DNA from: an uncultured archaeon
Lineage (GTDB): Archaea; Aenigmatarchaeota; Aenigmatarchaeia; CG10238-14; SCSR01
Assembly (NCBI GenBank): GCA_964423085.1
Contig: CAYRDB010000002.1
Coordinates: forward strand, 1 to 38,659
Length of the DNA: 38,659 nt
Reading direction: 5' to 3'
Part shown: piece after piece, positions 1,347-14,389 of the stretch
How the letters are laid out: every line of letters starts with the position of its first letter
Numbering within the stretch: position 1 is the first letter of the stretch
Notes under the pieces: model-generated
What the model was told of the DNA's origin: nothing
The model's input: the letters and a program-made list of their open reading frames with translations, nothing else
Database searches by the model: none
Program-made: the position numbers and the translations under genes

Positions 1347-1778
1347 ATGGAAGAGCATGAGAAAACACTTTACAGAGTTTTCACGTTTTCTGGCAAGAAA
1401 ATAGAACTTCCTTCCGAAAACAAGAACAAGACTTTCGAAAAGGTCAATGAAGAGTCTTTGAAAGACCTGGCGGACGAGTTCAAAGTGCTTGTCCAAATAT
1501 ACAAATTCAACATGACAGAGACGCCTGCTAATTTTACAAGACTGGCAAATTACTTTAACGGCATGCTTACTGAGACTCATGTGATGGGATTGCTGGCTAC
1601 TTTGGAAGATTTTGGGATCATTAATGCAGAATACGGCGATGTTGGAAAAGGACGGTCCGGCAGACGATATTTTCTTTCAAATGAAAAATTGGAGGAAGTC
1701 AGAGACATTTATGAGAAACACGTCAAGCCTAAAGAAACTCCTAAAGAACGGATAAGTTATGTTCCAGGAATTTTGTAA
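1347..1778 (+). CDS. hypothetical protein with winged-helix-like segment, divergent from iscU
   Basis: 143-aa ATG ORF. THVMGLLATLEDFGIINAEYGDVGKGRSGRRYFLS looks like a recognition helix plus beta-wing. It has no Cys. It shares the 81-nt intergenic region with iscU. Confidence 0.45.
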   Translation: MEEHEKTLYRVFTFSGKKIELPSENKNKTFEKVNEESLKDLADEFKVLVQIYKFNMTETPANFTRLANYFNGMLTETHVMGLLATLEDFGIINAEYGDVGKGRSGRRYFLSNEKLEEVRDIYEKHVKPKETPKERISYVPGIL

Positions 1779-1856
1779 GCGGACTGCTCTAACTTTTAAA
1801 TCAGTTCGTCCTAAAGATTAAGTAGCGTCAGTTGGAATAACGGGTGTGTTGTAAAA

Positions 1857-2657
1857 ATGGACAAGAAAAAAGGATTGCCAGAATACGGCGAAACAGTTCT
1901 CTGCACCACTACGAGGATTACTCCGTTCGCTGCCTGGTGCACGCTCGACGAGTACGAGAACGAGGATGGATCCCCGATAGAAGGTATGATACACATCTCC
2001 CAGGTTGCTGGCAAGTGGATCAAGGACATACGCGATTTTGTAAAGCCAAACAAGCAGTACATGGCCAAGGTCATAAAGATAGACTATGAAAAGGGACATC
2101 TCAACCTCAGCATAAAAAGGGTGAGCAAGTTCGACAAGAAGGAGAAGATGGAGGATTATAGAAGGGACAAAAGGTCGAACGGAATGGTGATGCAGGTCGC
2201 CAAGATAGTCGGCAAGGGCGATGTGCAGAAGGAAATCGTCGATAAGCTCGAGAAGATTCACAAGGACGACAGCAAAAAGTTTGATGTTTTCACAGCGTTC
2301 GAAGAAGTGAACGAAAATCCTGAAATTGTCAAGGAAGCTGGTATAAAGAAGGACTGGGCAGAAGCGCTCATGGGTGTTGTCGAGAGCAACTTTAGGATAA
2401 AGGAGAGGACGCTCAAAGTAAAGCTAAAACTGGAGAGCAAGGCTCCAGATGGAGTAAAAACAATAAAGAAGGTCCTGTCCGAGCTCGAAAAAATAGATGG
2501 CATTGAAGTGACGTACATATCCGCGCCAGAGTACAGGGTTGAGATGAAGACAAAGGAGCCCAAAGTCGCTGAAAAGACTATGAGGGACGGCGTGGAGAAG
2601 GCTATAAAGGAGCTAGAATCAGCTGGCGGCTCCGGAAGCTACGAGCTGGTGAGATGA
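1857..2657 (+). CDS. eif2a: translation initiation factor aIF2 alpha subunit
   Basis: N-terminal S1/OB segment (GETVLCTTTRITPFAAWCTLDEY...GMIHISQVAGKWIKDIRDFVK) followed by helical and alpha-beta domains. The length of 266 aa is typical. Confidence 0.9.
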   Translation: MDKKKGLPEYGETVLCTTTRITPFAAWCTLDEYENEDGSPIEGMIHISQVAGKWIKDIRDFVKPNKQYMAKVIKIDYEKGHLNLSIKRVSKFDKKEKMEDYRRDKRSNGMVMQVAKIVGKGDVQKEIVDKLEKIHKDDSKKFDVFTAFEEVNENPEIVKEAGIKKDWAEALMGVVESNFRIKERTLKVKLKLESKAPDGVKTIKKVLSELEKIDGIEVTYISAPEYRVEMKTKEPKVAEKTMRDGVEKAIKELESAGGSGSYELVR

Positions 2658-2809
2658 AGCTCAGGAAATGTTTTTCTTGCAGTGTGTACACGCTGAAGGC
2701 AGAGTGCCCTAAATGCGGCAATAGTACCAAAACCCCTCATCCCATTTCGTTCTCCCCCGAAGACAGATACGGAAAATACAGGAGAATGTCTAAATCAGCC
2801 AACCTGTAA
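2654..2809 (+). CDS. nop10: H/ACA RNP protein Nop10 (51 aa, below the ORF-track cutoff)
   Basis: My translation is MKLRKCFSCSVYTLKAECPKCGNSTKTPHPISFSPEDRYGKYRRMSKSANL. It has a Zn-ribbon CxxC...CxxC and the P..FSPEDKY..YRR signature. The ATG overlaps the aIF2-alpha TGA (ATGA). Confidence 0.85.
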   Translation: MKLRKCFSCSVYTLKAECPKCGNSTKTPHPISFSPEDRYGKYRRMSKSANL

Positions 2810-2843
2810 TTAATATATCAGGAAAATCCAATATAGTTTTATC

Positions 2844-3659
2844 ATGTCCACCAAGATTGTAGAACTTTCAAAGCCGAAGCTGAAAAAGCCGATATTCATA
2901 GAAGGCCTGCCCGGAGTGGGCAATGTGGGAAGGATAGCTGCCGGATACTTGGTGGAAGAGCTGAAGGCAAAGAAATTCGCCGAGCTGTACAGCTCGCATT
3001 TCATGCCGTTCGTGCTGGTTCAGCAGAAATCTGATGTGCATGTGCTGAAGAACGAATTCTACTACTGGAAGGCTAAAAAGCCGAACCAGAGGGATTTGAT
3101 TATACTCATAGGTGACTCGCAGAGCGTCGACCCAGAGGGTCATTATGAAATATGCGAGGAGATTCTCAGTTATATCAAAAAGTTCAATGTGAGCGAGATG
3201 GTCAACCTGGCTGGCCTGAGCGTGGGCGAGAAAAAGGACAACCCAGAAGTGTTCGGAGTGGTTAACGACCTGTCACTTGTCAAGAAATACAGCAAGCATG
3301 GCATACATTTTGCAACAGGCGAGAAAGTGGGAACAATAGTCGGCGCATCCGGGCTTCTTCTTGGACTGGGAGAGAACTTTGGGTTAAAGGGCATTTGCCT
3401 CCTTGGAGAGACTTCTGGACTGCCTCTGATACCAGATCCAAAATCGGCAGAGGCTGTGCTCAGCACTCTGACCAAAGTCGTAGGAATAAAGATAGACACC
3501 AGCGAAATCCAGAAAAAAGTCAAGGAGATGGAGGACTTTATAGGCCGCATGGAAAAGGTGCAAAGGAAGGCGTTCAGCCAGATGATGAAGGACAGACTTC
3601 AGAAGCCGGCTGAAAAAGGCGAGGATCAGGAAGAGCAGAACCTCAGCTACATAGGATAG
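2844..3659 (+). CDS. PAC2-family proteasome assembly chaperone-like protein
   Basis: N-terminus KPIFIEGLPGVGNVGRIAAGYLVEEL and overall length match the archaeal PAC2 / ATP-grasp-like family. That family commonly follows aIF2-alpha and Nop10. Confidence 0.7.
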   Translation: MSTKIVELSKPKLKKPIFIEGLPGVGNVGRIAAGYLVEELKAKKFAELYSSHFMPFVLVQQKSDVHVLKNEFYYWKAKKPNQRDLIILIGDSQSVDPEGHYEICEEILSYIKKFNVSEMVNLAGLSVGEKKDNPEVFGVVNDLSLVKKYSKHGIHFATGEKVGTIVGASGLLLGLGENFGLKGICLLGETSGLPLIPDPKSAEAVLSTLTKVVGIKIDTSEIQKKVKEMEDFIGRMEKVQRKAFSQMMKDRLQKPAEKGEDQEEQNLSYIG

Positions 3660-3725
3660 GGTCTTTTTCTACCAATTTGCCGATTGTGTGAACGTTTATA
3701 AAACTATAACGACAAATAAAGAACT

Positions 3726-4394
3726 ATGTCTGAAGAGTTTTTAATCCCGCGGGAGAAATATCTTGCGTCGGGCATACACATAGGGATGAAGCAGAGGACG
3801 AAGCAGATGGCTCCGTTCGTGTACAAGGTAAGATCTGACGGTTTGGCTGTCATGAATCTCCAGGTTATAGACGAAAGAATCAGGGAGGCTGCGAAATTCC
3901 TGGCGGGAGCGAAGAACATACTCGTGGTAAGCAGAAAGAGCGTGTCCACAAAAGCAATAGAAAAGTTCTCAGACATGATAGTCGCTAAGAACATGAAAGG
4001 AAGATTCATGCCAGGAATGCTCACAAACCCTTCATACGAGGACTTTTATGAAGCTGACGTAGTTTTTGTCATAGACCCAGCAGCAGACTATCAGGTGCTT
4101 ACCGAAGCTGTCAACGCGCGAGTGCCTGTTATTGCAGTTTGCGACACTCTGAACGAAACTAAAAATGTAGACTTTATCATACCGGCGAACAACAAGGGCG
4201 CCAGGTCGCTCAATCTGCTCTTCTGGCTTCTGACAAGGGAAGTGCTAAAGGCCAGGGGCGAGATAAAGGGAGACGACGAATTCAAGCCGTCTCTAGAAGA
4301 CTTTGAAGACGAGTCTGACGTAAGGGAAGGAAGGGAAGCTCCTGCAAGAACCAGAAGGCCTTCCGGAAGGTCTAGGTCCGCGCCACGCCAATAA
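3726..4394 (+). CDS. rps2: 30S ribosomal protein uS2
   Basis: LASGIHIGMKQRTKQMAPFVYKVRSDGLAVMNLQ plus the DPAADYQVLTEA...PVIAVCDT core. It has an Arg/Ser-rich C-terminal tail. Confidence 0.9.
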   Translation: MSEEFLIPREKYLASGIHIGMKQRTKQMAPFVYKVRSDGLAVMNLQVIDERIREAAKFLAGAKNILVVSRKSVSTKAIEKFSDMIVAKNMKGRFMPGMLTNPSYEDFYEADVVFVIDPAADYQVLTEAVNARVPVIAVCDTLNETKNVDFIIPANNKGARSLNLLFWLLTREVLKARGEIKGDDEFKPSLEDFEDESDVREGREAPARTRRPSGRSRSAPRQ

Positions 4395-4566
4395 ATACGT
4401 TTTCTCCGTTCGCTCAGAACGACCGAGCAGTCATTTCATATTTTCATAATATAATTCGAAGGAGCCAAATCATTATTTAAGTTCACGATAAAAATTCTAT
4501 AACAGCCAGAAAAAAAGCGCGTTAGATAGTTGCTTTTCAAAGGCGCCGAAAGGAGGATAGTCAATT

Positions 4567-6648
4567 ATGACTTCGGTTCTTCAGGTAAAAAAGCGAGACG
4601 GCAGGATAGTAGATTTTGAAAAGGAAAAGGTAGCTCTAGCGATATGGAAGGCTGCCGAATCTGTCGGCGGCAAGGACAAGTCCAAATCCGAAGAGCTGGC
4701 GAACAAGGTCGCAGAGCAGGTCGAGAAAGAGTTCAGCGGCAAGATTCCCAGCGTGGAAGATGTGCAGAACATAATAGAAAAGATACTTATCAACGAGGGC
4801 CATGCGACTGTAGCAAAAGCGTACATACTATACAGACAGAAGAGAGTGGAAGCCAGGAAGATGAAGGCTGTTCTGGGAGTGACCGACGAGGTTAAGATGA
4901 GCCTTAACGCGCTGAAGGTCATGGCCAGCAGGTATCTTATCAGAGATGAGAACAGGAAGATAGTCGAAAGCACTTCTCAGTTGTTCAGAAGAGTAGCCAT
5001 GGCTATAGCCGAACCTGAGAAGAGCTACAGCGGGGATGAGAAAGCGAAAGAATACGAAGACCTTTTTTATGACATGATGGTAAAGGGAGAGTTCCTTCCA
5101 AACAGCCCCACTCTCATGAACGCCGGAACCGAGCTGAGCCAGCTGTCCGCGTGCTTCGTTCTCCCTATACCGGACTCGATACCCGGAATATTCGACTCTG
5201 TGAAGAACACCGCAATAATACACAAGAGTGGAGGGGGGACCGGATTTTCTTTTTCGAACATAAGGCCTAAAGGAGATGTGGTAAAGAGCACAGGAGGCGT
5301 GGCTTCAGGCCCGCTGTCTTTCATGAACGTTTTCAACGCGGCTACAGACGTGATAAAGCAGGGCGGCAAGAGAAGGGGCGCGAACATGGGCATACTGCGC
5401 GTCGACCATCCGGACATACTAGAATTTATAACAGCTAAGGAGAAGGAGGGCACGCTGAGCAACTTTAACTTCTCGATAGCAACAACAGACAGTTTCATGC
5501 GCGCTGTGGAAAGCAATTCCGAATACGACCTGATAAATCCTAGGAGCAAGAAACCTATAAAGAAGCTCCCAGCCAGGGCGGTATTCAACCTGATGGTGAT
5601 GATGGCGTGGAAAAACGGCGAGCCCGGAGTGGTGTTCATAGACAGGATAAACGCATACAATCCAACTCCGGCAATAGGCGAGATAGAGTCCACGAACCCG
5701 TGCGGTGAGCAGCCTCTGCTTCCATACGAGTCATGCAACCTGGGCTCGATAAACCTTGAAAAGATGATGTCGAACAGCCACTTTGACTGGGAAAAACTGA
5801 GAAGGACAGTCCACCTTTCCGTCAGGTTCCTCGATAATGTGGTCGACCAGAACAAGTATCCGATCAAGGAGATAGACGATATGACAAAAGCCAACAGGAA
5901 AATAGGGCTTGGCGTGATGGGCTTCGCGGACATGCTGATAAAGATGAAGATACCTTACAACTCCGAGGCTGCCATAAAGATTGCCGAGGAGATAATGAAG
6001 TTTATACAGGAAGAATCTAAGAAGGCGTCTGTGCAGCTTGGAAAAGAGAGGGGTCCGTTCCCCAACTTTGAAAAGAGCGTTCTGAAAGGAAAATACGAGA
6101 CAATAAGGAATGCCACCACTACGACCATAGCGCCTACCGGAACCATAAGCGTGATAGCAAACTGCTCCTCGGGAATAGAACCGATATTCGCAGTGTCTTA
6201 TGTAAGGGACGTGAGCGACAGCCTGGGGCACGAGCTCGTGGAGATAAATCCGACATTCGAAACAGCCATGATAGAAAGAGGCATGTACACGGACGAGCTG
6301 ATAACAAAGATTTCGCAGAACGGCGGCATACAGAGCATAGAGGAAATACCGAAGGATATAAGGGATGTTTTTGTCACAGCCATGGACATAGCTCCAGAAT
6401 GGCACATTAGGATACAGGCTGCGTTCCAGAAATACACTGACAACGCGGTGTCCAAGACCATAAACTTCCCGACGTTCGCGACTCCGTACGACGTGGAAAA
6501 GGCTTTCATGCTTTCCTGGAAGATGGGGTGCAAAGGAGTGACAGTGTACAGGTACGGCAGCAGGCAGAAGCAGATATTGAACATAAAGTCTGGGGAAGCC
6601 AAAGTCTCGGACGACTACACTGGCGGGTGCCCGCACTGCTCCCTATAG
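4567..6648 (+). CDS. nrdJ: ribonucleotide reductase, class II (adenosylcobalamin-dependent) with N-terminal ATP-cone
   Basis: ATP-cone start (VKKRDGRIVDFEKEKV). The active-site block TNPCGEQPLLPYESCNLGSINL is the class II form, not the class I NLCxEI form. The C-terminal tail ends GGCPHCSL. A GGAGG lies 8 nt upstream of the ATG. Confidence 0.88.
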   Translation: MTSVLQVKKRDGRIVDFEKEKVALAIWKAAESVGGKDKSKSEELANKVAEQVEKEFSGKIPSVEDVQNIIEKILINEGHATVAKAYILYRQKRVEARKMKAVLGVTDEVKMSLNALKVMASRYLIRDENRKIVESTSQLFRRVAMAIAEPEKSYSGDEKAKEYEDLFYDMMVKGEFLPNSPTLMNAGTELSQLSACFVLPIPDSIPGIFDSVKNTAIIHKSGGGTGFSFSNIRPKGDVVKSTGGVASGPLSFMNVFNAATDVIKQGGKRRGANMGILRVDHPDILEFITAKEKEGTLSNFNFSIATTDSFMRAVESNSEYDLINPRSKKPIKKLPARAVFNLMVMMAWKNGEPGVVFIDRINAYNPTPAIGEIESTNPCGEQPLLPYESCNLGSINLEKMMSNSHFDWEKLRRTVHLSVRFLDNVVDQNKYPIKEIDDMTKANRKIGLGVMGFADMLIKMKIPYNSEAAIKIAEEIMKFIQEESKKASVQLGKERGPFPNFEKSVLKGKYETIRNATTTTIAPTGTISVIANCSSGIEPIFAVSYVRDVSDSLGHELVEINPTFETAMIERGMYTDELITKISQNGGIQSIEEIPKDIRDVFVTAMDIAPEWHIRIQAAFQKYTDNAVSKTINFPTFATPYDVEKAFMLSWKMGCKGVTVYRYGSRQKQILNIKSGEAKVSDDYTGGCPHCSL

Positions 6649-7574: not shown

Positions 7575-7760
7575 ATGGCAACAGTGAGCTTGGACAAGGA
7601 AAAGTGCATAGGATGCGGGCTCTGCACAAGCATATGCCCCGAAGTTTTTGAGCTGAAAGAAGATGGGAAGGCTTATGTGAAAGGCGAGTGCGGCGAGGGT
7701 TGCGACTGCAGCTCAGCTGCTGAGAGCTGCCCTGTCCAGGCGATAACATACAAAAAGTAG
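7575..7760 (+). CDS. small [4Fe-4S]-type ferredoxin
   Basis: CIGCGLCTSICPEVFEL...DGKAYV...AESCPVQAI resembles the Thermotoga/Pyrococcus single-cluster ferredoxins. Length is 61 aa. Confidence 0.85.
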   Translation: MATVSLDKEKCIGCGLCTSICPEVFELKEDGKAYVKGECGEGCDCSSAAESCPVQAITYKK

Positions 7761-8477
7761 CTATATGCTTATTTTTCCTTCGCCATCTATCTCTATCAGG
7801 TGAGCTACGTCCTTCGACTTTCTTATAGTAACCACGTCCCCGTCCTTTAGCGGTATCATAGTGGTGTTGTTGTCGGCGCACATGAGGGCTGGTCCCCTGT
7901 TGACTTTAACCTTGACCTCCGAACCTTCTGGAACTAGCTTGAACTTTATGTTTTTGTTCACATTGTTGAAAGCCAGACCTATGCCGCTCGAAAAGCTCCT
8001 ACCGGTTATGCTCTTGAAATATGCGGTGCTGCCGTAGGTGGTCGCTGTTATCAGGCCGTCGCCTATCAGGTCTTCCGCTATCTTATTTCCGTCCACATGG
8101 ACATCGAACCTCACCGCGCGTATGGGCACAGCGTGCGCAACGTTTATCTCATTCAATCCGACAAGCATCTTCCTCCTGTCGCCGTTCACCACACCTTCAA
8201 GCTTCGTGGCCTTTGATATTTTGTATTTTTTCTCGCTGAGCGCGAGAAGTATTGAAGAAAAATTGTGAAGGCCGCCGACACTGCATTTCTCGCAAGTCCT
8301 GCTGTGTTTTATCGCAAGCCTGGGTATTCCGGGGTAAAGCTGTTCAGCTATCAGAGCAGAGCCGTCACCACCATAAGATATCACAATGTCCGGCTTTAGC
8401 TTGTCCAGCGAAAACCCTCTTCGGGAAACCTCCCTTTCAAGGGCAGACTTTTCTATGCCTACAACAGCAACCTTCAT
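7761..8477 (-). CDS. nadK: NAD kinase
   Basis: GGDGS motif (VISYGGDGSALIA), NEI motif (GLNEINV) and TATTYGSTAYFKS. Length is 238 aa. Confidence 0.85.
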   Translation of the reverse strand: MKVAVVGIEKSALEREVSRRGFSLDKLKPDIVISYGGDGSALIAEQLYPGIPRLAIKHSRTCEKCSVGGLHNFSSILLALSEKKYKISKATKLEGVVNGDRRKMLVGLNEINVAHAVPIRAVRFDVHVDGNKIAEDLIGDGLITATTYGSTAYFKSITGRSFSSGIGLAFNNVNKNIKFKLVPEGSEVKVKVNRGPALMCADNNTTMIPLKDGDVVTIRKSKDVAHLIEIDGEGKISI

Positions 8478-8507
8478 GATTAGTAATTCTTGCCTATTAA
8501 CTTAACT

Positions 8508-9611
8508 TTAACTAGAATTGCCCTTAGAAACCCTTTCTTTAGCTATCTTCATTCCAGAGTCGCGCGGCAGCAGGCCTTCTGAATCCGACCGTTCTAGCAC
8601 GAGCCTGGTGTTCTTCCTTGTTCTGGACTCTACCTCTTTGAACATCACATCAGCGTCCCCGCCTATGTGTTCTATGTACGAAGATATCACACCGCCTGCG
8701 TTTGCAACAAAGTCCGGAACTACAAGCACGCCCTTTTCAAAGAGCATTCTCTCGATTTCTGGGGTGGTGGGTATGTTCGCAGCCTCCACGACAATCTTGG
8801 CTTTTATAGAATTCCAGTTATCTGCGGTTATGGAGTCTGAAAGCGCGGAAGGTACAAGCACATCCACAGGCAGGCTGAACAGTTCCTCGTTAGGAAGCAC
8901 CCTGCCTCCTGCGCAATTTTTCACAGCGCCGGTGCTGTCCTTCGCTTCCCTTAGCTTTTCATAGTCAAGGCCGCTCTCGTCGTATATCACACCTTTGCTG
9001 TCGCTCACTGCTACGACTTTCGCCCCGGCTTCCAAAAAGTATTTTGTGACAAAGCTGCCAACGTTCCCGAATCCTTCAACTGCAATCGTGACATCTTTCA
9101 TGTCCATTCCAGCATGCTCTATTGCAACAGCTCCAGAATGGAAGGCTCCGAACCCGGTAGATCCCAATTCGTGCGGAAGACCTCCCATATCAGTGGGCTT
9201 ACCAGTGCAAGACTCGAGACCGTTCTCGTTTGCAAAAATTCTCATTTCATTTTCTCCAACGTTCACGTCAGGCGCGGCTATCCACATGCTCGGAGAAAGC
9301 GATTTGACTGCCTTTGCATACGACCTGAATATCTTCTCCTTAATCGCGGCATCCGCACCCTTAGGAAGAAGGATTGCACCCTTTGCGCCGCCGAAAGGAA
9401 GTTCCGCGAGCGCGCACTTCCATGTCATGGTCCTAGCAAGTCGGAAATCCTCCGAAAGGGTGACATAAGGGGTCATCCTTATCCCTCCCTTGCCCGGTCC
9501 CAAAGAAAGATTGTCTAGAACAACGAATCCGTTCATTCCGACCTTTGGGTCGTACACGTTTACCACATACTGCGGTCCCCACTCGTCGTGAACTATGCTG
9601 TTCGCGTCCAT
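8508..9611 (-). CDS. Glu/Leu/Phe/Val dehydrogenase family enzyme (glutamate dehydrogenase-like)
   Basis: Motifs GPGKGGIRM, LPFGGAKGAI, and Rossmann VAVEGFGNVGSF. I start it at Met57 of the track ORF (MDANSIVHDEW). The upstream 56 codons overlap the trxB 3' end and look spurious. Confidence 0.85.
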   Translation of the reverse strand: MDANSIVHDEWGPQYVVNVYDPKVGMNGFVVLDNLSLGPGKGGIRMTPYVTLSEDFRLARTMTWKCALAELPFGGAKGAILLPKGADAAIKEKIFRSYAKAVKSLSPSMWIAAPDVNVGENEMRIFANENGLESCTGKPTDMGGLPHELGSTGFGAFHSGAVAIEHAGMDMKDVTIAVEGFGNVGSFVTKYFLEAGAKVVAVSDSKGVIYDESGLDYEKLREAKDSTGAVKNCAGGRVLPNEELFSLPVDVLVPSALSDSITADNWNSIKAKIVVEAANIPTTPEIERMLFEKGVLVVPDFVANAGGVISSYIEHIGGDADVMFKEVESRTRKNTRLVLERSDSEGLLPRDSGMKIAKERVSKGNSS

Positions 9612-9622
9612 AAATATCACAT

Positions 9623-10843
9623 TCACTTGTGCCCTGCCCAATCGGCCACGTATTTGTTTTCCAAACCGTGTATGTAGTTGTATGCTGCAAGCGCCGCCTT
9701 GCATCCTTCTCCGGCTGCGACAACTATCTGCTTGAATGGGGTGTCGGTCACATCGCCTGCCGCGAATATGCCCTGGCATGAAGTCTCGGAGTGCTTGTTG
9801 GTCTTTATCTGGCCGAGATCGTCTACGTCAACATTTCCTCCGACAAATCCGGTGTCAACATCCGAGCCTATCTCGACAAAAACGCCATCCACCTTTATTT
9901 CTTTTTCAGAGCAGGAATCGTCAGACACTATGATTGAATTCACAAAATTGTCCCCGCGTATCTCGCTTAATTTGGATTCCATTACAAGCTCTATGTTGCT
10001 TTTCGTCTTCGCTTCGTTTACCACATTCTCGAAAGCCCTGAACTCTGACCTCCTGTGTATGAGGTACACCTTTCTTGCAATCTTTGAAAGAAGCAGCGCA
10101 GCATCCAGAGCGGAATTGCCTCCTCCTACCACAGCGACGGTCTTTCCCTTGAACAATGGCGCATCGCATGTGGCGCAGTAGCTTACCCCCTTACCGCTGA
10201 ACTCGTCCTCCCCCGGCACGCCGAGGTTCCTAGGGGTCTTTCCGCTGGCTATTATAACAGTTTTGGAGTTGTATTCATGGTCGCATGTCGAGACCGTGAA
10301 TATTTTCTGGCCCCGGGTTTCGCTCTGAGAGATTTTTACAACGTTCTTCATTATTATTTCAGCGCCGAATCCCCTGGCTTGAGACTCGAATCTTTTCGCA
10401 AGGTCTGTGCCATCCACCTTCTCAAGGCCGGAATAGTTCTCTATCTCTGTTGTCCTGGCCATCTGGCCGCCTATGTCCTTTGTAATCACAAGCGTCTTCA
10501 TCTCTCTGCGTGAAGAATAGAGGGCGGCAGTGAGGCCTGCTGCAGATCCGCCTACTATGATAACATCGTAAAGAACGCCACTGGAATTGTTTGATTCAAC
10601 GGGATTATCTTGAGCTTTGTCCAGAAGCTTGTCCATCATAGGAACGTCGAATCCCACTATTATTTTTCCGTCTATGTCTATGACAGGAACTCCCATCTGG
10701 CCCGATTTCTCAATCATCTCCTGAGCAGCAAAGCTGTCATTCGAGACGTTTATGTCCTCGAACTCAAACCCCTTTGACCTTATGTAGTCCTTTGCCATAT
10801 GGCAATACGGACAGGCATCGGTTGAATAGACTTTGATTTTCAT
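9623..10843 (-). CDS. trxB: glutaredoxin-like domain fused to low-Mr thioredoxin reductase
   Basis: N-terminal Grx fold with CPYC (KVYSTDACPYCHMAKDY...GVPVIDIDGKIIVGFD). This is followed by FAD GxGxxG (IIVGGSAAGLTAAL), redox CATC (SYCATCDAPLF), NADPH GGGNSALD and HRRSEFRA (the HRRxxxR NADPH motif). Confidence 0.85.
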   Translation of the reverse strand: MKIKVYSTDACPYCHMAKDYIRSKGFEFEDINVSNDSFAAQEMIEKSGQMGVPVIDIDGKIIVGFDVPMMDKLLDKAQDNPVESNNSSGVLYDVIIVGGSAAGLTAALYSSRREMKTLVITKDIGGQMARTTEIENYSGLEKVDGTDLAKRFESQARGFGAEIIMKNVVKISQSETRGQKIFTVSTCDHEYNSKTVIIASGKTPRNLGVPGEDEFSGKGVSYCATCDAPLFKGKTVAVVGGGNSALDAALLLSKIARKVYLIHRRSEFRAFENVVNEAKTKSNIELVMESKLSEIRGDNFVNSIIVSDDSCSEKEIKVDGVFVEIGSDVDTGFVGGNVDVDDLGQIKTNKHSETSCQGIFAAGDVTDTPFKQIVVAAGEGCKAALAAYNYIHGLENKYVADWAGHK

Positions 10844-10898
10844 AAAACCAACGAAAGCTGAAGTTATAACAGATTATTGGAGGTTTTAGTATTTGTAT

Positions 10899-11270
10899 CT
10901 ATGCGAGCGGGCACCCGGAAATTTCGGACAACTTGGAAAGCTGCTGCATTCCCACAACAGTCTCGTCGCCTATCTTCCAGGTCGGTATGGACCTTATGTT
11001 TTCAGCAACGCATACAGAATTCATGCCAGAGCAGTCCACATATTCTATGTATTTGAAAGAATCTCCGAAAAGCTCCATCTGCTGCTTACACCAGCCACAC
11101 TGGCTTGAGCCATACATAACAACACCCTTTTCACTTAGACATTGGGCAAAATCGTCATATCCGCCAACAGCCGAGTGCTGACCTGTTATCTGAGGAACTA
11201 AAAAGTACATAGTTGCCACTGCTACCACTACAGCAGTTATTGCGACAATAATTTTGGTTCTTGAAATCAT
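10899..11270 (-). CDS. membrane-anchored extracytoplasmic thioredoxin-like protein (CGWC), VKOR-partner type
   Basis: N-terminal TM helix. The segment FAQCLSEKGVVMYGSSQCGWCKQQMELFGDSFKYIEYVDC...SIPTWKIGDETVVGMQQLSKLSEISGC resembles the Trx-like domain fused to bacterial VKOR homologues (MYGAxWCPHCxxQKxLFG...YVEC...YPTW). Confidence 0.7.
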   Translation of the reverse strand: MISRTKIIVAITAVVVAVATMYFLVPQITGQHSAVGGYDDFAQCLSEKGVVMYGSSQCGWCKQQMELFGDSFKYIEYVDCSGMNSVCVAENIRSIPTWKIGDETVVGMQQLSKLSEISGCPLA

Positions 11271-11316
11271 TTGACCACTTTTTTGAATGCCTGTTTGAAG
11301 TATTTATGGCTTTCTA

Positions 11317-11676
11317 TCATTCGCATGCAAGCGACCCTTGTGTGATTACGCAACTTCCGGTCAACGGATCGCAAGTCCCGAAAACGGCAAGGTTGTACAG
11401 ACTGTAAAACGAGTAAATCATGCTAGCAAAGAAAACTATCGTGAATATCCAGGACAGTACATCAAATCTCCTATAAACAAACCTGGCCAGCGTCGGATTC
11501 TTCTTCATTAGCTTTGACACTATGCCTGACTTTATCCTCTGGTCCAGTTTTGTGTCGCACGTCCTGAAGCTCATCTTCAGGAACACGCACCGGAAAGCCT
11601 CTTTTGCAGTAGACCTGTATTTGGCAGAGAAAACGCTAAGCATTCCAAACACTACAAGCGCTATTAGACATATCAT
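11317..11676 (-). CDS. 2-TM membrane protein with cysteine pairs on both faces, unknown family
   Basis: TM1 spans aa 2-17 and TM2 aa 73-100. The loop between them is strongly basic (about 15 K/R), so predicted cytoplasmic, and carries C30/C40. The external tail is TCDPLTGSCVITQGSLACE. There is no CxxC. Confidence 0.5.
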   Translation of the reverse strand: MICLIALVVFGMLSVFSAKYRSTAKEAFRCVFLKMSFRTCDTKLDQRIKSGIVSKLMKKNPTLARFVYRRFDVLSWIFTIVFFASMIYSFYSLYNLAVFGTCDPLTGSCVITQGSLACE

Positions 11677-11687
11677 GTAATCGCCGA

Positions 11688-12743
11688 TTAGCAGCTTCCG
11701 TTGCTAGTAGAGCCACCGCTGTAGCTCTCTGAAAACGAAACCGAAGCCTGTTCTTTGCTCAGCTCTTGAGAGCACACAGACGGTTCAGCAGAGAATCCGC
11801 AACAAAGAAGCGTCTTTAGTGCGTCCGCTGTCCTTCCACCGAAATCGTACTCGCTCACAATCTGCCCGTTCATGACTAGAGTTGGAGATCCAGATACCAT
11901 ATATTGGTCCTGTATTTCAAAGTCTTCCTCTGCGTAGGCTATTCCCCTCTCGCTGTCAGACATGCAAGCGTCCAAAGAGTCTGTGTCTATTTCAGCCTCT
12001 GCAAGGCACTCTTCCGAATTACCCGCTTTCATGAAGCATGAAACATAATCCCAGTATTTGTCAGACTGCTCCTCTCTTATGCATATCTGCCTGAGATTCT
12101 CTTCTGCTTCTCTTTCTCCGTGCATGGCTGTTATTTCGCCGTTTACAACATCTCCTATGTACCTTACTTTTATGTTCTCAGCCAGTTCCGGAATATTCTT
12201 CACAACTTCGTAAAGTATCCTCTGCATCTGAACACCGTACGGGCATTCTGATACTACAAAAGCGTTTATAACAGGGTCCTGAGCCTTTGGAACATCGTCG
12301 CAAGTCATAGCAGGCTGCGTTGTGGTAGTAGTAGAAGAAACCTTGTTAGAGGTGTATATCACTTGTGGCAGAAACATTTCGCCATCTCTTGTGACATATA
12401 GCGTCTGATTGTCGGAAATCCCTTCTCCAAACACGGATATTTCGAATTCGATTATTCCGCTGTCTGTCAACTCATATCCAAGCAGTTGGATGTCCATTTC
12501 GCCGTAGTATGTCTCATAATAGTCTGTTATCCATGCTACGACCTTGTTGACAGCGGCGGCATCAGAATCTTGACCAACAAGAAACAAATTGCCTGAAATG
12601 CCGAACAAATTAGGTTGTAAGAAAAGAGCCACTACAATTGCCACAGCCACAAAGGTAGAAATCATCCACGGGTTTATTTTTGGAACCCTTATCGTTATAG
12701 TCCTTGGCTTCTCTGCCTCCGAGTTTTGATTGCTTTCTGCCAT
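11688..12743 (-). CDS. membrane-anchored extracytoplasmic DsbA-like thioredoxin-fold protein with CPYG in place of CxxC
   Basis: N-terminal TM anchor, a small alpha/beta domain and a Thr-rich linker. The Trx fold follows: FVVSECPYGVQMQ ... helical insert ... VSGSPTLVMNGQIV (DsbA-like cis-Pro loop). The tail is Cys-rich. Confidence 0.55.
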   Translation of the reverse strand: MAESNQNSEAEKPRTITIRVPKINPWMISTFVAVAIVVALFLQPNLFGISGNLFLVGQDSDAAAVNKVVAWITDYYETYYGEMDIQLLGYELTDSGIIEFEISVFGEGISDNQTLYVTRDGEMFLPQVIYTSNKVSSTTTTTQPAMTCDDVPKAQDPVINAFVVSECPYGVQMQRILYEVVKNIPELAENIKVRYIGDVVNGEITAMHGEREAEENLRQICIREEQSDKYWDYVSCFMKAGNSEECLAEAEIDTDSLDACMSDSERGIAYAEEDFEIQDQYMVSGSPTLVMNGQIVSEYDFGGRTADALKTLLCCGFSAEPSVCSQELSKEQASVSFSESYSGGSTSNGSC

Positions 12744-12804
12744 GGCAATAAACCAAATACAAAATATATTTACTTAATCTTATCGGAAGACCCAGATTTA
12801 AATC

Positions 12805-14025
12805 TTATGTAAGCCTCGATATCTCCCGAACTTTGTCAACGAACAGCCTAGCCTCTTCTTCGGTGTTGTACAAGTACACAGAAGCGCGCACAGAACCCTT
12901 TATGCCGTGCGAATTGAACCACGAATGTACGCAATGGGCACCTGAACGCACCATTATGTTCGCAGTGTCATCGAGCATAAGCGCCACATCGTGAGGAAAC
13001 ATGCCTTTTATGTTGAAGGAAACTATTCCCCCGCGCATTTTAGGCTCCTGCGGGCCAACTATCGAGACCCCGTTTATTCCCAACAGCTCTTCGGTGATGA
13101 TTTCATTTAGCCTGGATTCGTGCTTGCCTATGTTTTCAAGTCCCACGCCTTCGATATATTCTGCGGCAGCTGCCATTCCAATCGATCCAGCATAGTTCTG
13201 AAGCCCCGCTTCGAACCTCTGCGGAGGCGGAAGAAGCACATAATCGTCGTATGTCGAGTCCTTGACAGTCTCTCCTCCCATTGCGTAAGGCTGCATCTTT
13301 TCCAGGATTTCCTGCTTCGCGTAAAGCGCCCCAGTGCCGCTTGGTCCGAGCATCTTGTGTCCTGAAAACGCAAGGAAATCTACATCAAGCTTCCTGACAT
13401 CCACTTTTTTGTGCGGCACGCTCTGCGCACCGTCCACAAGGACCATGGCACCGGCATCGTGAGATATCTTTGCTATTTCTTTAACAGGTAGAGTGTATCC
13501 GTCGAAATTGGACGTGTGCACCACAGAAACGAGCTTTAGGCTTCCTTTCAAAGACTTTACCTTCCTTTCGAACTCTCCGACATCGAAAGTCATGTCTTCC
13601 GCAGAGAAAACCATTTCGTGCTTCAGTCCCGCAACCTTTACCAGCCTAATCCAGGGAAGCAGATTGGAGTTGTGTTCGCGGTCGGAAGTAAGAACAACAT
13701 CGCCCGATTTCAATCCTATTGAATTGGCGACCATGTTTATCCCTTCGGTTGTGTTCTTTGTGAAAATTATCTCGCTCTCGCGCTTGGCGTTCACGAACTT
13801 TGCAATCCTCTTTCTGGCGTCATGATATTTCTCTGTGACAATGTCGCCGAGCTTGTGGGAGCTCCTGCCTGCGCACGCGGGATAGCTGTAGTAATACTCG
13901 TTCATAGCATCCACAACCTGCTTCGGCTTTAGGGACATGCACGAGTTGTCGAAATATACTATCGGTTTGTTGTTGAACTTTCTCTCGAGGACCGGAAAGT
14001 CCTTCCTTATTTTTTTCACATCCAT
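12805..14025 (-). CDS. sufS: cysteine desulfurase, group II (SufS/CsdA-like) PLP enzyme
   Basis: PLP lysine context FSGHKMLGPSGTGALY. The catalytic loop VRSGAHCVHSW is the group II RxGHHC type. Length is 406 aa. Confidence 0.88.
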   Translation of the reverse strand: MDVKKIRKDFPVLERKFNNKPIVYFDNSCMSLKPKQVVDAMNEYYYSYPACAGRSSHKLGDIVTEKYHDARKRIAKFVNAKRESEIIFTKNTTEGINMVANSIGLKSGDVVLTSDREHNSNLLPWIRLVKVAGLKHEMVFSAEDMTFDVGEFERKVKSLKGSLKLVSVVHTSNFDGYTLPVKEIAKISHDAGAMVLVDGAQSVPHKKVDVRKLDVDFLAFSGHKMLGPSGTGALYAKQEILEKMQPYAMGGETVKDSTYDDYVLLPPPQRFEAGLQNYAGSIGMAAAAEYIEGVGLENIGKHESRLNEIITEELLGINGVSIVGPQEPKMRGGIVSFNIKGMFPHDVALMLDDTANIMVRSGAHCVHSWFNSHGIKGSVRASVYLYNTEEEARLFVDKVREISRLT

Positions 14026-14034
14026 GTAATCACT

Positions 14035-14061
14035 TATTCTATAACAGCGTTATAAATTAAA
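14035..14061 (-). promoter_or_regulatory. TATA-like box plus palindromic operator candidate upstream of the cysteine desulfurase
   Basis: Positions 14040-14055 read TATAACAGCGTTATAA, 14 nt from the ATG at 14025. The block is 25/27 identical to 1270-1296. Confidence 0.5.
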
Positions 14062-14112: not shown

Positions 14113-14389
14113 GGCGAGCCGGCCAGGTAGCTTCGGGTTGCTCTCAAAGGCAACCTGAGGAAGTTCCATCCATCAAAGGAGCCGTGAAAGCCGAAAGGCA
14201 GAGTAGCGGCACGCTGAGAAGCATCCGGCTGTATCAGAAACGGCACTTTGCTGCCCCGTTAACAATGAGGGAAACCTAGTTGGGGTAGTGTAAGATGAAA
14301 CGGACAGCAGGTCCTGATGCGATGCAAGCTTAGGCGCTAAGACAAATGCTACCCAACACAGAAGATGGGCTATGGCTGGCACGCCGCCA
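14113..14389 (+). ncRNA. rnpB: RNase P RNA (archaeal type A-like, compact, about 277 nt)
   Basis: CR-I-like GAGGAAGUUCCAUCC at 14155-14169. Also present are GUGAAAGCCGAAAGGC, CAGAAACGG, GGUAGUGUAAGAUGAAACGG and a CR-IV/V-like ACACAGAAGAUGGGCUAU. The 5' GGCGAGCCGGCC can pair with the 3' GGCUGGCACGCC (P1). A T5 run follows at 14390-14394. Ends are approximate. Confidence 0.8.

Follow-up and report, generated by a model that had tools for sequence, protein, structure and literature searches.

Organization of the seven-gene string

The 38,659-nt stretch of archaeal DNA analysed here, hereafter the window (contig CAYRDB010000002.1 of assembly GCA_964423085.1), belongs to a 510-kb metagenome-assembled genome (MAG) of Candidatus Aenigmatarchaeota (DPANN) that is 84% complete, and it harbours a string of seven co-directional minus-strand genes for thiol and NADP chemistry (Table 1). 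In transcription order these encode a SufS-type cysteine desulfurase, an exported GILT/DsbA-like protein of the thioredoxin (Trx) fold, a five-cysteine protein with two transmembrane helices (the 2-TM protein), an exported Trx-like protein, a glutaredoxin (Grx)-like domain fused to thioredoxin reductase (TrxR), a short glutamate dehydrogenase (GDH) and an NAD kinase (NADK), with spacers of 61, 11, 46, 55, 11 and 30 nt. An earlier reading of the bare letters (the sequence-only reading) had described the string with just these spacers, and the coordinates of the open reading frames agree with it. Its family labels were borne out by Pfam and NCBIfam for every string protein except the 2-TM protein, for which no family match was obtained. 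The longest reading frame of the GDH gene starts at 9779 and overlaps the TrxR gene; the spacer lengths hold for a start at 9611, which is preferred because alignments of orthologues begin at residues 5–9 of the 9611 version.

Every enzyme of the string belongs to a known family, and the string is made of two conserved gene modules lying end to end. Module A comprises the genes for SufS, the GILT/DsbA-like protein, the 2-TM protein and the Trx-like protein; module B comprises those for the Grx-like::TrxR fusion, the short GDH and NADK. Other co-directional runs of seven to eight genes are found in the window, and since such runs are ordinary there, the significance of this one was judged by its conservation in other genomes; two sub-strings proved to be conserved in distant relatives beyond what chance would give. 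Each string protein was searched in 40 related genomes, drawn from the window's own genus, family and order, giving 41 genomes together with that of the window (G000).

Table 1. Genes and elements of the string and of its borders, with positions in the window.
Feature	Position	Strand	Remarks
SufS-type cysteine desulfurase	12805..14025	-	heads module A; Aminotran_5 (PF00266), E 3e-114
GILT/DsbA-like exported Trx-fold protein, membrane-anchored, CPYG	11688..12743	-	Pfam GILT, 30.2 bits
Five-Cys 2-TM protein	11317..11676	-	119 aa; no Pfam or NCBIfam match; 11 nt after DsbA-like gene
Trx-like protein, membrane-anchored, VKOR-partner type	10899..11270	-	CGWC; SIPTW cis-Pro
Grx-like::TrxR fusion	9623..10843	-	heads module B; CPYC, CATC, HRRSEFR
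Short GDH	8508..9611	-	367 aa; ELFV_dehydrog and ELFV_dehydrog_N; 11 nt after TrxR
Divergent NAD kinase	7761..8477	-	238 aa; last of string; NAD_kinase_C; T5 run after stop codon
NrdJ, class II (adenosylcobalamin) ribonucleotide reductase	4567..6648	+	convergent neighbour outside the string; Ribonuc_red_lgC, E 2e-143, and ATP-cone
Archaeal RNase P RNA	14114..14384	+	upstream boundary of string; Rfam RF00373, 101 bits (gathering score 84)
Palindrome TATAACnnnGTTATA	14040..14054	.	15 nt; overlaps TATA box of SufS promoter; same 15-mer before iscU, 1275-1289

Conservation of the two modules

Module B is kept contiguous and in the order TrxR-GDH-NADK in eleven relatives (G001, G013, G022, G035, G008, G012, G038, G005, G037, G040 and G032), TrxR-GDH pairs occur in five more (G024, G020, G015, G026 and G027), and GDH-NADK pairs in a further two (G023 and G039). 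Several families are represented among these genomes, with proteins 46–66% identical to those of the window. Among the 26 relatives with a short GDH, TrxR lies immediately upstream in 16, some with a thioredoxin gene between, and within 5 kb in four more, three contigs being too short to tell; NADK comes immediately after GDH in 14 relatives. A wider survey of the short GDH, with one genome per GTDB species, gave at least 586 loci; in about 25 of the best 80, which were examined, TrxR was the immediate neighbour, contigs of Woesearchaeota and Nanoarchaeota included. Other gene orders were GDH-TrxR-Trx-NADK (L108) and NADK-GDH (L056, L104), and the survival of the TrxR-GDH link despite rearrangement speaks for selection and against inertia. 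Most genomes encode Grx separately, in the gene preceding TrxR, and read-through matches there contain stop codons. A Grx-TrxR fusion without internal stop codons was found only in G000, G001, G013 and G022, and this fusion marks Grx as the substrate of TrxR.

The surroundings of GDH vary in further ways. In a genome from another family (G030:C77:7103-8918), a GDH of canonical length (39% identical, reading frame of about 418 amino acids) is directly followed by a gene with an NAD kinase domain, so the GDH-NADK adjacency is not restricted to the short GDH subfamily. A second recurrent context places the short GDH directly behind genes for an IscS-like protein and IscU, without TrxR as a neighbour (L083, L106, L110, L113, L115 and L055), and at L110 NrdJ and CobA come next. 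Short GDHs of the DPANN type are also present on several contigs of MAGs labelled Planctomycetota or Brocadiales (L068, L074, L097, L105, L119 and L127), which could be mis-binned DPANN contigs or reflect lateral transfer.

Module A has its own distribution. The 2-TM gene occurs in 10 of the 41 genomes, all of one family, and in each of the ten (the window's included) it adjoins a cysteine desulfurase gene or is separated from one only by the DsbA-like gene. SufS is followed by 2-TM in G009, G006, G015 and G010, and G014 has a row of three genes, for a desulfurase paralogue, a 2-TM-like protein and IscU. Seven further 2-TM contexts were drawn from a protein collection: DsbA-like, 2-TM, SufS on a Woesearchaeota contig (L132); DSBA, SufS, 2-TM, Trx-like (L134); SufS, 2-TM (L156); a sulfur-relay operon of IscS-like, ThiI, 2-TM and IscU at 1641-4934 of a Logan contig from SRR17234067 (L158); 2-TM, DsbA-like (L157); a Trx-fold protein, then 2-TM (L155); and 2-TM with neither partner (L133). 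In most genomes having module A its contexts are without TrxR-GDH-NADK, so that this module is found in the absence of module B.

All seven genes stand in one row in G000 and G022, likely also in G013 and G002, whose strings are interrupted by contig ends, and with insertions in G001; these genomes represent the genus of the window and two sister genera. The whole region of about 25 kb is collinear in these five genomes, with eIF2-alpha, PAC2, ribosomal protein S2, NrdJ, CobA, nfo, archease and RtcB, and the seven-gene arrangement therefore carries little weight. The coherence of the string, which the sequence-only reading had proposed to check by synteny, is thus upheld for modules A and B separately but not for the seven-gene row, which is confined to three close genera.

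The proteins of module B and the proposed supply of NADPH

The TrxR carries a GGSAAG (GxGxxG) motif, CATC and HRRSEFR, matches Pyr_redox_2 at E 2e-47, and has archaeal TrxRs as its best matches in the PDB (4zn0 and 3f8p, E 1e-70); against TIGR01292 its score of 343.1 bits is borderline (cut-off 343.45). These features place it among the low-Mr thioredoxin reductases, and the 2'-phosphate-binding motif HRRxxxR predicts that it is of the NADPH-dependent class. Both this motif and the built-in Grx had been pointed out from the letters alone, and both are found in the protein, as HRRSEFR and as a domain with CPYC. The Grx domain matches Glutaredoxin at E 1e-17 and passes TIGR02196 (YruB) with 93.1 bits (cut-off 88.55).

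The GDH matches ELFV_dehydrog (PF00208, E 1.5e-55) and ELFV_dehydrog_N (PF02812, E 1.7e-25), and its closest solved relatives are the GDHs of Thermococcus litoralis, Thermotoga maritima and Pyrococcus furiosus (E 5e-67 to 4e-62). With 259 bits it falls far below the NCBIfam equivalog cut-off of 750 and therefore represents a divergent short subfamily. The catalytic Lys and both ligands of the glutamate gamma-carboxyl group (equivalents of K89 and S380 of Clostridium symbiosum GDH) are retained. In alignment with the T. litoralis and T. maritima GDHs the sites read GPGK41GGIR, GGAK77G, LPK91 and GGVISS310-311, and K41, K77, K91, S310/S311 and the segment AVSDSKG are invariant in 13 orthologues. 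Judged by these residues, the predicted substrate pocket is that of a glutamate dehydrogenase and not of a Leu/Phe/Val enzyme.

The NADK reaches NAD_kinase_C (PF20143) with 34.6 bits (cut-off 23.7) and conserves GGDG, LNEI (NE) and YGSTAY (GSTAY); it falls short of the N-terminal Pfam domain and of the NCBIfam cut-offs. It also has a CxxC segment (SxxC[EKR]KC; C62-E-K-C65, window 8283-8294), kept in most of 35 aligned orthologues and lost in several, at what we take to be the place of the canonical GxNxGxLGFL loop. Through this CxxC, NADP synthesis could be switched by redox state or by metal.

The NADPH motif co-varies with the neighbouring genes. Nearly all GDH-adjacent TrxRs have HR[RSK]xxFR, the exceptions being a few Woesearchaeota-type TrxRs with YRKxxxR-like variants, and 11 of the unlinked TrxR homologues are without HRRxxxR and have, for instance, NITSxL, NKDDRL or EIxPEL instead. 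In G003, G009, G011 and G014 neither GDH nor NADK was found, and their only TrxRs are without the motif. Such motif-less homologues, seen at L037 (G011), L042 (G014), L135 (G009:C3), L139, L140 and L141, include second TrxR paralogues. At L046 (G031:C32) and L047 (G034:C56), TrxR-like genes adjoining DsbA-like genes keep HRRxxFR with no CxxC at the aligned position, and their products may be TrxR-like ferredoxin:NADP+ oxidoreductases rather than TrxRs.

Searches of the recovered genome, at its 84% completeness, gave no match to any of the seven other enzyme families considered as candidate sources of NADPH, among them glucose-6-phosphate dehydrogenase, 6-phosphogluconate dehydrogenase, isocitrate dehydrogenase, malic enzyme, aldehyde dehydrogenase and glyceraldehyde-3-phosphate dehydrogenase. 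The same genome yielded no PF00085 thioredoxin, no AhpC-TSA peroxiredoxin, no second Grx and no second Pyr_redox_2 or flavoprotein disulfide reductase above cut-off. As far as the recovered 84% shows, no candidate for reducing NADP turned up besides GDH, and no cytoplasmic redoxin besides the fused Grx.

NrdJ as a likely client, and the proposed chain

NrdJ, a class II ribonucleotide reductase (RNR), heads a plus-strand run that goes on with genes for a small membrane protein, CobA and a ferredoxin and converges on the NADK end of the string; NrdJ is 1.1 kb away, and the last base of the ferredoxin gene, at 7760, borders on the NADK stop codon. The NrdJ-CobA-ferredoxin block abuts NADK-GDH-TrxR in G000, G001, G002, G013 and G022, is one to three genes from module B in G025, G026 and G011 and five genes away in G005, and NrdJ is near GDH at L110 and L125. 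NrdJ is the only thiol-dependent enzyme noted near module B, and the sequence-only reading had not considered it as an electron sink. Class II RNRs need thioredoxin- or glutaredoxin-type reductants, and from this need together with the proximity of NrdJ the chain may be read as running from glutamate to NADPH, TrxR, Grx and NrdJ, the last step making NrdJ the likeliest client of Grx::TrxR.

In this chain NADK would make NADP+, as its family assignment suggests, and GDH, given its glutamate pocket, would oxidise glutamate and reduce NADP+. TrxR would take up the electrons through the NADPH site HRRSEFR and the CATC disulfide, motifs that are present, and would hand them to the fused CPYC glutaredoxin-like domain, which in turn would reduce NrdJ. 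Module A would be a separate membrane and extracytoplasmic thiol unit whose constant partner is cysteine desulfurase and not NADPH. The two modules would have been joined in the common ancestor of the three genera, and electron transfer from module B to module A is possible, if unproven. We accordingly favour, with a probability of roughly 0.6, the interpretation that module B is a self-contained chain from NADPH to protein dithiols and that module A is a separate desulfurase-linked thiol unit, joined to it in that ancestor. The NADPH supply chain as such, which the sequence-only reading had also drawn from NADK, GDH and an NADPH-type TrxR, appears well supported by comparative evidence: the conserved order of the trio across an order of Aenigmatarchaeota, the rearranged TrxR-GDH pairs of Woesearchaeota, the tracking of HRRxxxR and the finding of no other NADPH source all point to it.

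Several observations weigh against this interpretation. The place of RNR as client relies on proximity and on general knowledge of class II RNR reductants. The GDH segment AVSDSKG is within a residue of both AVSDTKG of the NADP-specific T. litoralis enzyme and AVSDSRG of that of T. maritima, which presumably uses both cofactors, and the sequence does not reveal which cofactor the predicted GDH prefers. An HRR-type TrxR and NADK occur in G016 with no GDH, and G039 and G023 have GDH and NADK with recovered TrxRs that are without a clean HRR motif. No NADK was found in ten relatives having the short GDH and an HRR-type TrxR, so NADK is not an obligate member or else these cells scavenge NADP. The genome is only 84% complete and what was not found in it is therefore weak evidence; moreover, related genomes are not independent samples.

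The proteins of module A

The SufS has its pyridoxal phosphate lysine in SGHK and its catalytic Cys in RSGAHC, as expected of SufS-type (group II) desulfurases, and scores 445.6 bits against TIGR01979, just below the cut-off of 475.1; in the recovered genome it matches only itself at E<=1e-20. The DsbA-like protein exceeds the GILT cut-off of 22.4 bits and stays below that of DSBA, and has an N-terminal hydrophobic anchor after a K/R-rich start. CP[YF]G is invariant in 18 of its homologues in the place of the CxxC of GILT/DsbA oxidoreductases, and it is therefore a monothiol relative rather than a canonical member. Residues 41–122 of the Trx-like protein match the Trx-like domain of Synechococcus VKOR (4nv2/3kp9; residues 192–279 of 4nv2) at E 1.6e-11, CGWC aligning with CPHC and SIPTW with SYPTW, and this homology identifies it as a relative of VKOR-associated Trx-like domains. 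No VKOR (PF07884) to serve as its partner and no DsbD_TM was matched in G000, at the completeness given above.

The 2-TM protein belongs to a family of 84 clusters, all annotated as 'hypothetical' and from Aenigm-, Woese- and Nanoarchaeota, that has no Pfam domain. Its invariant cysteines are C3, C30, C40, C102 and C109. The loop of residues 18–72 holds 15 K/R and is therefore read as probably cytoplasmic, a predicted topology that would probably put C30 and C40 on the cytoplasmic side of the membrane and C3, C102 and C109 on the outer side. An AlphaFold model from a 20-sequence alignment has low confidence (mean pLDDT 68.7, pTM 0.49), so only secondary structure was drawn from it: five helices, two of which (residues 2–16 and 71–99) are read as membrane-spanning from hydrophobicity. 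By Pfam, NCBIfam and the helix counts expected of VKOR, DsbB and DsbD (4–5, 4 and 6, respectively), the protein has no similarity to any of these. DsbD_TM was found in 6 of the 41 genomes, its sole overlap with the ten 2-TM genomes being a below-cut-off match in G006, and such small numbers do not decide whether the 2-TM protein replaces DsbD/CcdA.

A recurrent polytopic membrane protein of about 230 amino acids was considered as a CcdA because it looks CcdA-like by eye; it has no Pfam match and PF02683 does not detect it, and the assignment was dropped. It is encoded at L038 8412-9113 (G009:C6), with homologues in G012, G038, G011, G007 and G017, carries two intramembrane Pro-Cys motifs (NPCALAIL and LLPCTIGPY) and lies near genes for DsbA-like proteins and a DUF7343 regulator.

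Promoters and transcription units

The spacers were read by eye for archaeal promoters, which gives weak evidence. Every spacer of at least 30 nt has an A/T-rich TATA-like box centred 22–34 nt before the ATG, and such boxes, for example AAATATATTTT before the DsbA-like gene and GTTATAAC before TrxR, precede five of the seven genes. The latter, at window 10863-10870, is a self-complementary octamer with its centre 23 nt ahead of the start codon of Grx::TrxR; it was considered as an Fe-S operator and rejected, as it resembles the arms of TATAACnnnGTTATA without being a full copy. Exact copies of TATAACnnnGTTATA occur in the window only at 1275 (iscU) and 14040 (SufS) and nowhere inside the string, and SufS is predicted to have an operator-bearing promoter of its own. 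The 11-nt spacers leave no room for a promoter. The predicted transcription units are thus SufS; DsbA-like and 2-TM; Trx-like; Grx::TrxR and GDH; and NADK, with possible read-through between them.

Alternative explanations

The best surviving alternative, though an unlikely one, is that all seven genes form one unit in which electrons of NADPH pass from TrxR/Grx through the 2-TM protein, as a minimal analogue of DsbD/CcdA, to the exported Trx-like and DsbA-like proteins. Such a unit, with NADPH feeding the exported proteins, was what the sequence-only reading had proposed. The single co-directional run with short spacers agrees with it, as do the invariant cysteines that the predicted topology puts on both faces of the membrane (a pair in the K/R-rich loop, the others in the N-terminal end and the C-terminal tail) and a genome in which neither DsbD_TM nor VKOR was found. 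So does the position of DsbA-like genes, which lie within about 1 kb upstream of TrxR in G011, G025, G031, G034, G038 and G040 and just downstream of NADK in G032 and G037, eight more genomes that span four families; in G006, furthermore, TrxR is divergently beside SufS and the 2-TM gene. However, the 2-TM gene tracks cysteine desulfurase and not TrxR, with no TrxR-GDH-NADK nearby in G009, G015, G010, G014, L132, L134, L156 and L158. The Trx-like protein is of the VKOR-partner type, which is the oxidising arm in Synechococcus, and in VKOR-bearing relatives its orthologue is beside VKOR or near a VKOR-Trx fusion gene. The seven-gene arrangement is also limited to three genera with full regional collinearity, and SufS would be left without a role. 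Furthermore, SufS has a predicted operator-bearing promoter to itself, and each spacer of at least 30 nt contains a TATA-like box. The modules are thus better regarded as separate, and the earlier proposal of a single electron-feeding unit is not supported in the form in which it was made.

The role of the 2-TM protein itself could be that of a reductive relay fed by Grx::TrxR, of an oxidative relay fed by the persulfide of SufS, or of sulfur or Fe-S handling. A bolder and doubtful idea is that it represents a minimal transmembrane thiol relay of quinone-less DPANN, linking cytoplasmic sulfur and thiol chemistry (SufS persulfide as oxidant or NADPH-fed Grx::TrxR as reductant) to the VKOR-type Trx-like protein and the monothiol GILT/DsbA-like protein outside. 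If this were true, the string would provide the cell envelope with everything needed for thiol-redox chemistry, NADPH included, without recourse to respiration.

It is improbable that module A is a quinone-independent generator of disulfides and module B no more than its neighbour. In such a system the SufS persulfide would be reduced by the two cytoplasmic cysteines of the 2-TM protein, with release of sulfide, and the disulfide would be relayed outwards to the Trx-like and DsbA-like proteins. Dithiols do reduce the persulfides of cysteine desulfurases, and the 2-TM gene repeatedly adjoins SufS or IscS-like genes in varying orders. VKOR was found in 4 of the 41 genomes (G007, G024, G018 and G033), none of them among the ten with a 2-TM gene. 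In G024 VKOR (G024:C100:1149-1927) is divergently beside the Trx-like orthologue, the place that the 2-TM gene holds in the window, and G007 has a VKOR-Trx fusion gene (G007:C2:119220-120155) 1.6 kb from its Trx-like orthologue. However, the counts of 10 and 4 among 41 are too small for their exclusivity to be significant, about one overlap being expected by chance, and the mechanism is pure inference; we know of no precedent for such a system. SufS is, moreover, first of all a housekeeping Fe-S enzyme, since it is the only SufS-type desulfurase detected and has its operator in common with iscU. The location of 2-TM between thiI and iscU at L158 points instead to sulfur trafficking or Fe-S assembly, and the model of the protein is of low confidence (pLDDT 68.7).

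As to module B, there is but a slim chance that GDH assimilates ammonia at the expense of NAD(P)H, or is a catabolic NAD-specific enzyme, so that TrxR is not fed by it and the cluster reflects co-regulation only. Many NADP-dependent GDHs are assimilatory, the cofactor of this one cannot be fixed by sequence, and in the IscS-like and IscU context (L083, L106, L110, L113 and L115) GDH has no TrxR adjacent. However, with GDH as a consumer no NADPH producer would be left among the families searched, and the HRR motif of the neighbouring TrxR tracks the presence of GDH. There is also precedent for the catabolic, NADPH-forming direction in Thermococcus: according to the review PMC4518329, which cites Yokooji et al. 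2013, GDH is an occasional major supplier of NADPH in archaea, namely in Thermococcus kodakarensis.

Least probable of all is that there is no functional coupling and that housekeeping neighbours in a compact genome have simply inherited their synteny. In its favour, about 25 kb is collinear among G000, G022, G001, G013 and G002, runs of seven to eight co-directional genes are common in the window and TATA-like boxes precede five of the seven genes. Against it, the flanks change at family and order distance and TrxR-GDH(-NADK) stays contiguous, Woesearchaeota link the same genes in different orders, SufS and 2-TM are adjacent in several permutations, and inertia explains neither the Grx-TrxR fusion nor the co-variation of HRR with GDH and NADK.

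Implications

In the literature on DPANN or Aenigmarchaeota with GDH, TrxR or NAD kinase we found no description of a TrxR-GDH(-NADK) cluster, nor of co-variation of the NADPH motif of TrxR with GDH and NADK. The string may be viewed as a putative thioredoxin system with built-in synthesis and reduction of NADP, joined here to a desulfurase-linked envelope thiol module. Little of central metabolism is left in DPANN archaea and other ultra-small cells, and the source of their NADPH and the reduction of their RNR and thiol enzymes is the puzzle that these observations address. An operon of NADK, GDH and an NADPH-type TrxR suggests that these cells would meet the cost of thiol reduction and of deoxynucleoside triphosphate synthesis with glutamate from their host or surroundings. 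The co-variation of HRRxxxR, a motif absent where GDH and NADK are not found, may serve as a genomic marker for DPANN lineages still using NADP. Module A, in turn, points to a membrane protein family that could explain cell-surface disulfide chemistry without VKOR, DsbB or DsbD.

Comparison with known systems

The TrxR of Thermotoga maritima with its glutaredoxin-like protein and the Cp34/Cp9 pair of Clostridium pasteurianum are low-Mr TrxRs that work with a small CxxC redoxin of the YruB/NrdH type and not with a classical thioredoxin. The Grx domain of the window, which passes the YruB cut-off of TIGR02196, resembles these redoxins; unlike them, it is fused to the N-terminus of TrxR, and genes for GDH and NADK follow the reductase. 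The GDH of T. kodakarensis, for which PMC4518329, citing Yokooji et al. 2013, describes the supply of NADPH by glutamate oxidation, is like that of the window in being of the archaeal hexameric type, and the Thermococcales enzymes are the closest solved relatives. In contrast, the GDH of the window is short, with 367 amino acids and without about 28 N-terminal and about 40 C-terminal residues, and its cofactor is not readable from the sequence.

The Trx-like domain of the VKOR-Trx fusion of Synechococcus (3kp9, 4nv2) is homologous to the exported Trx-like protein of 123 amino acids in the window, with a CxxC and a cis-Pro loop in common, but as against the VKOR-DsbA pathway no VKOR was found in the window genome and the neighbouring membrane protein has only two TM helices. 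In the DsbD/CcdA pathway electrons run from NADPH through TrxR, Trx and a membrane relay to a periplasmic Trx-fold protein, and the string is similar in that the genes of a cytoplasmic TrxR system adjoin those for a Cys-bearing membrane protein and for exported Trx-fold proteins. It differs in that the 2-TM protein has two helices and not six, has no Pfam match, and has a cysteine desulfurase as its constant partner.

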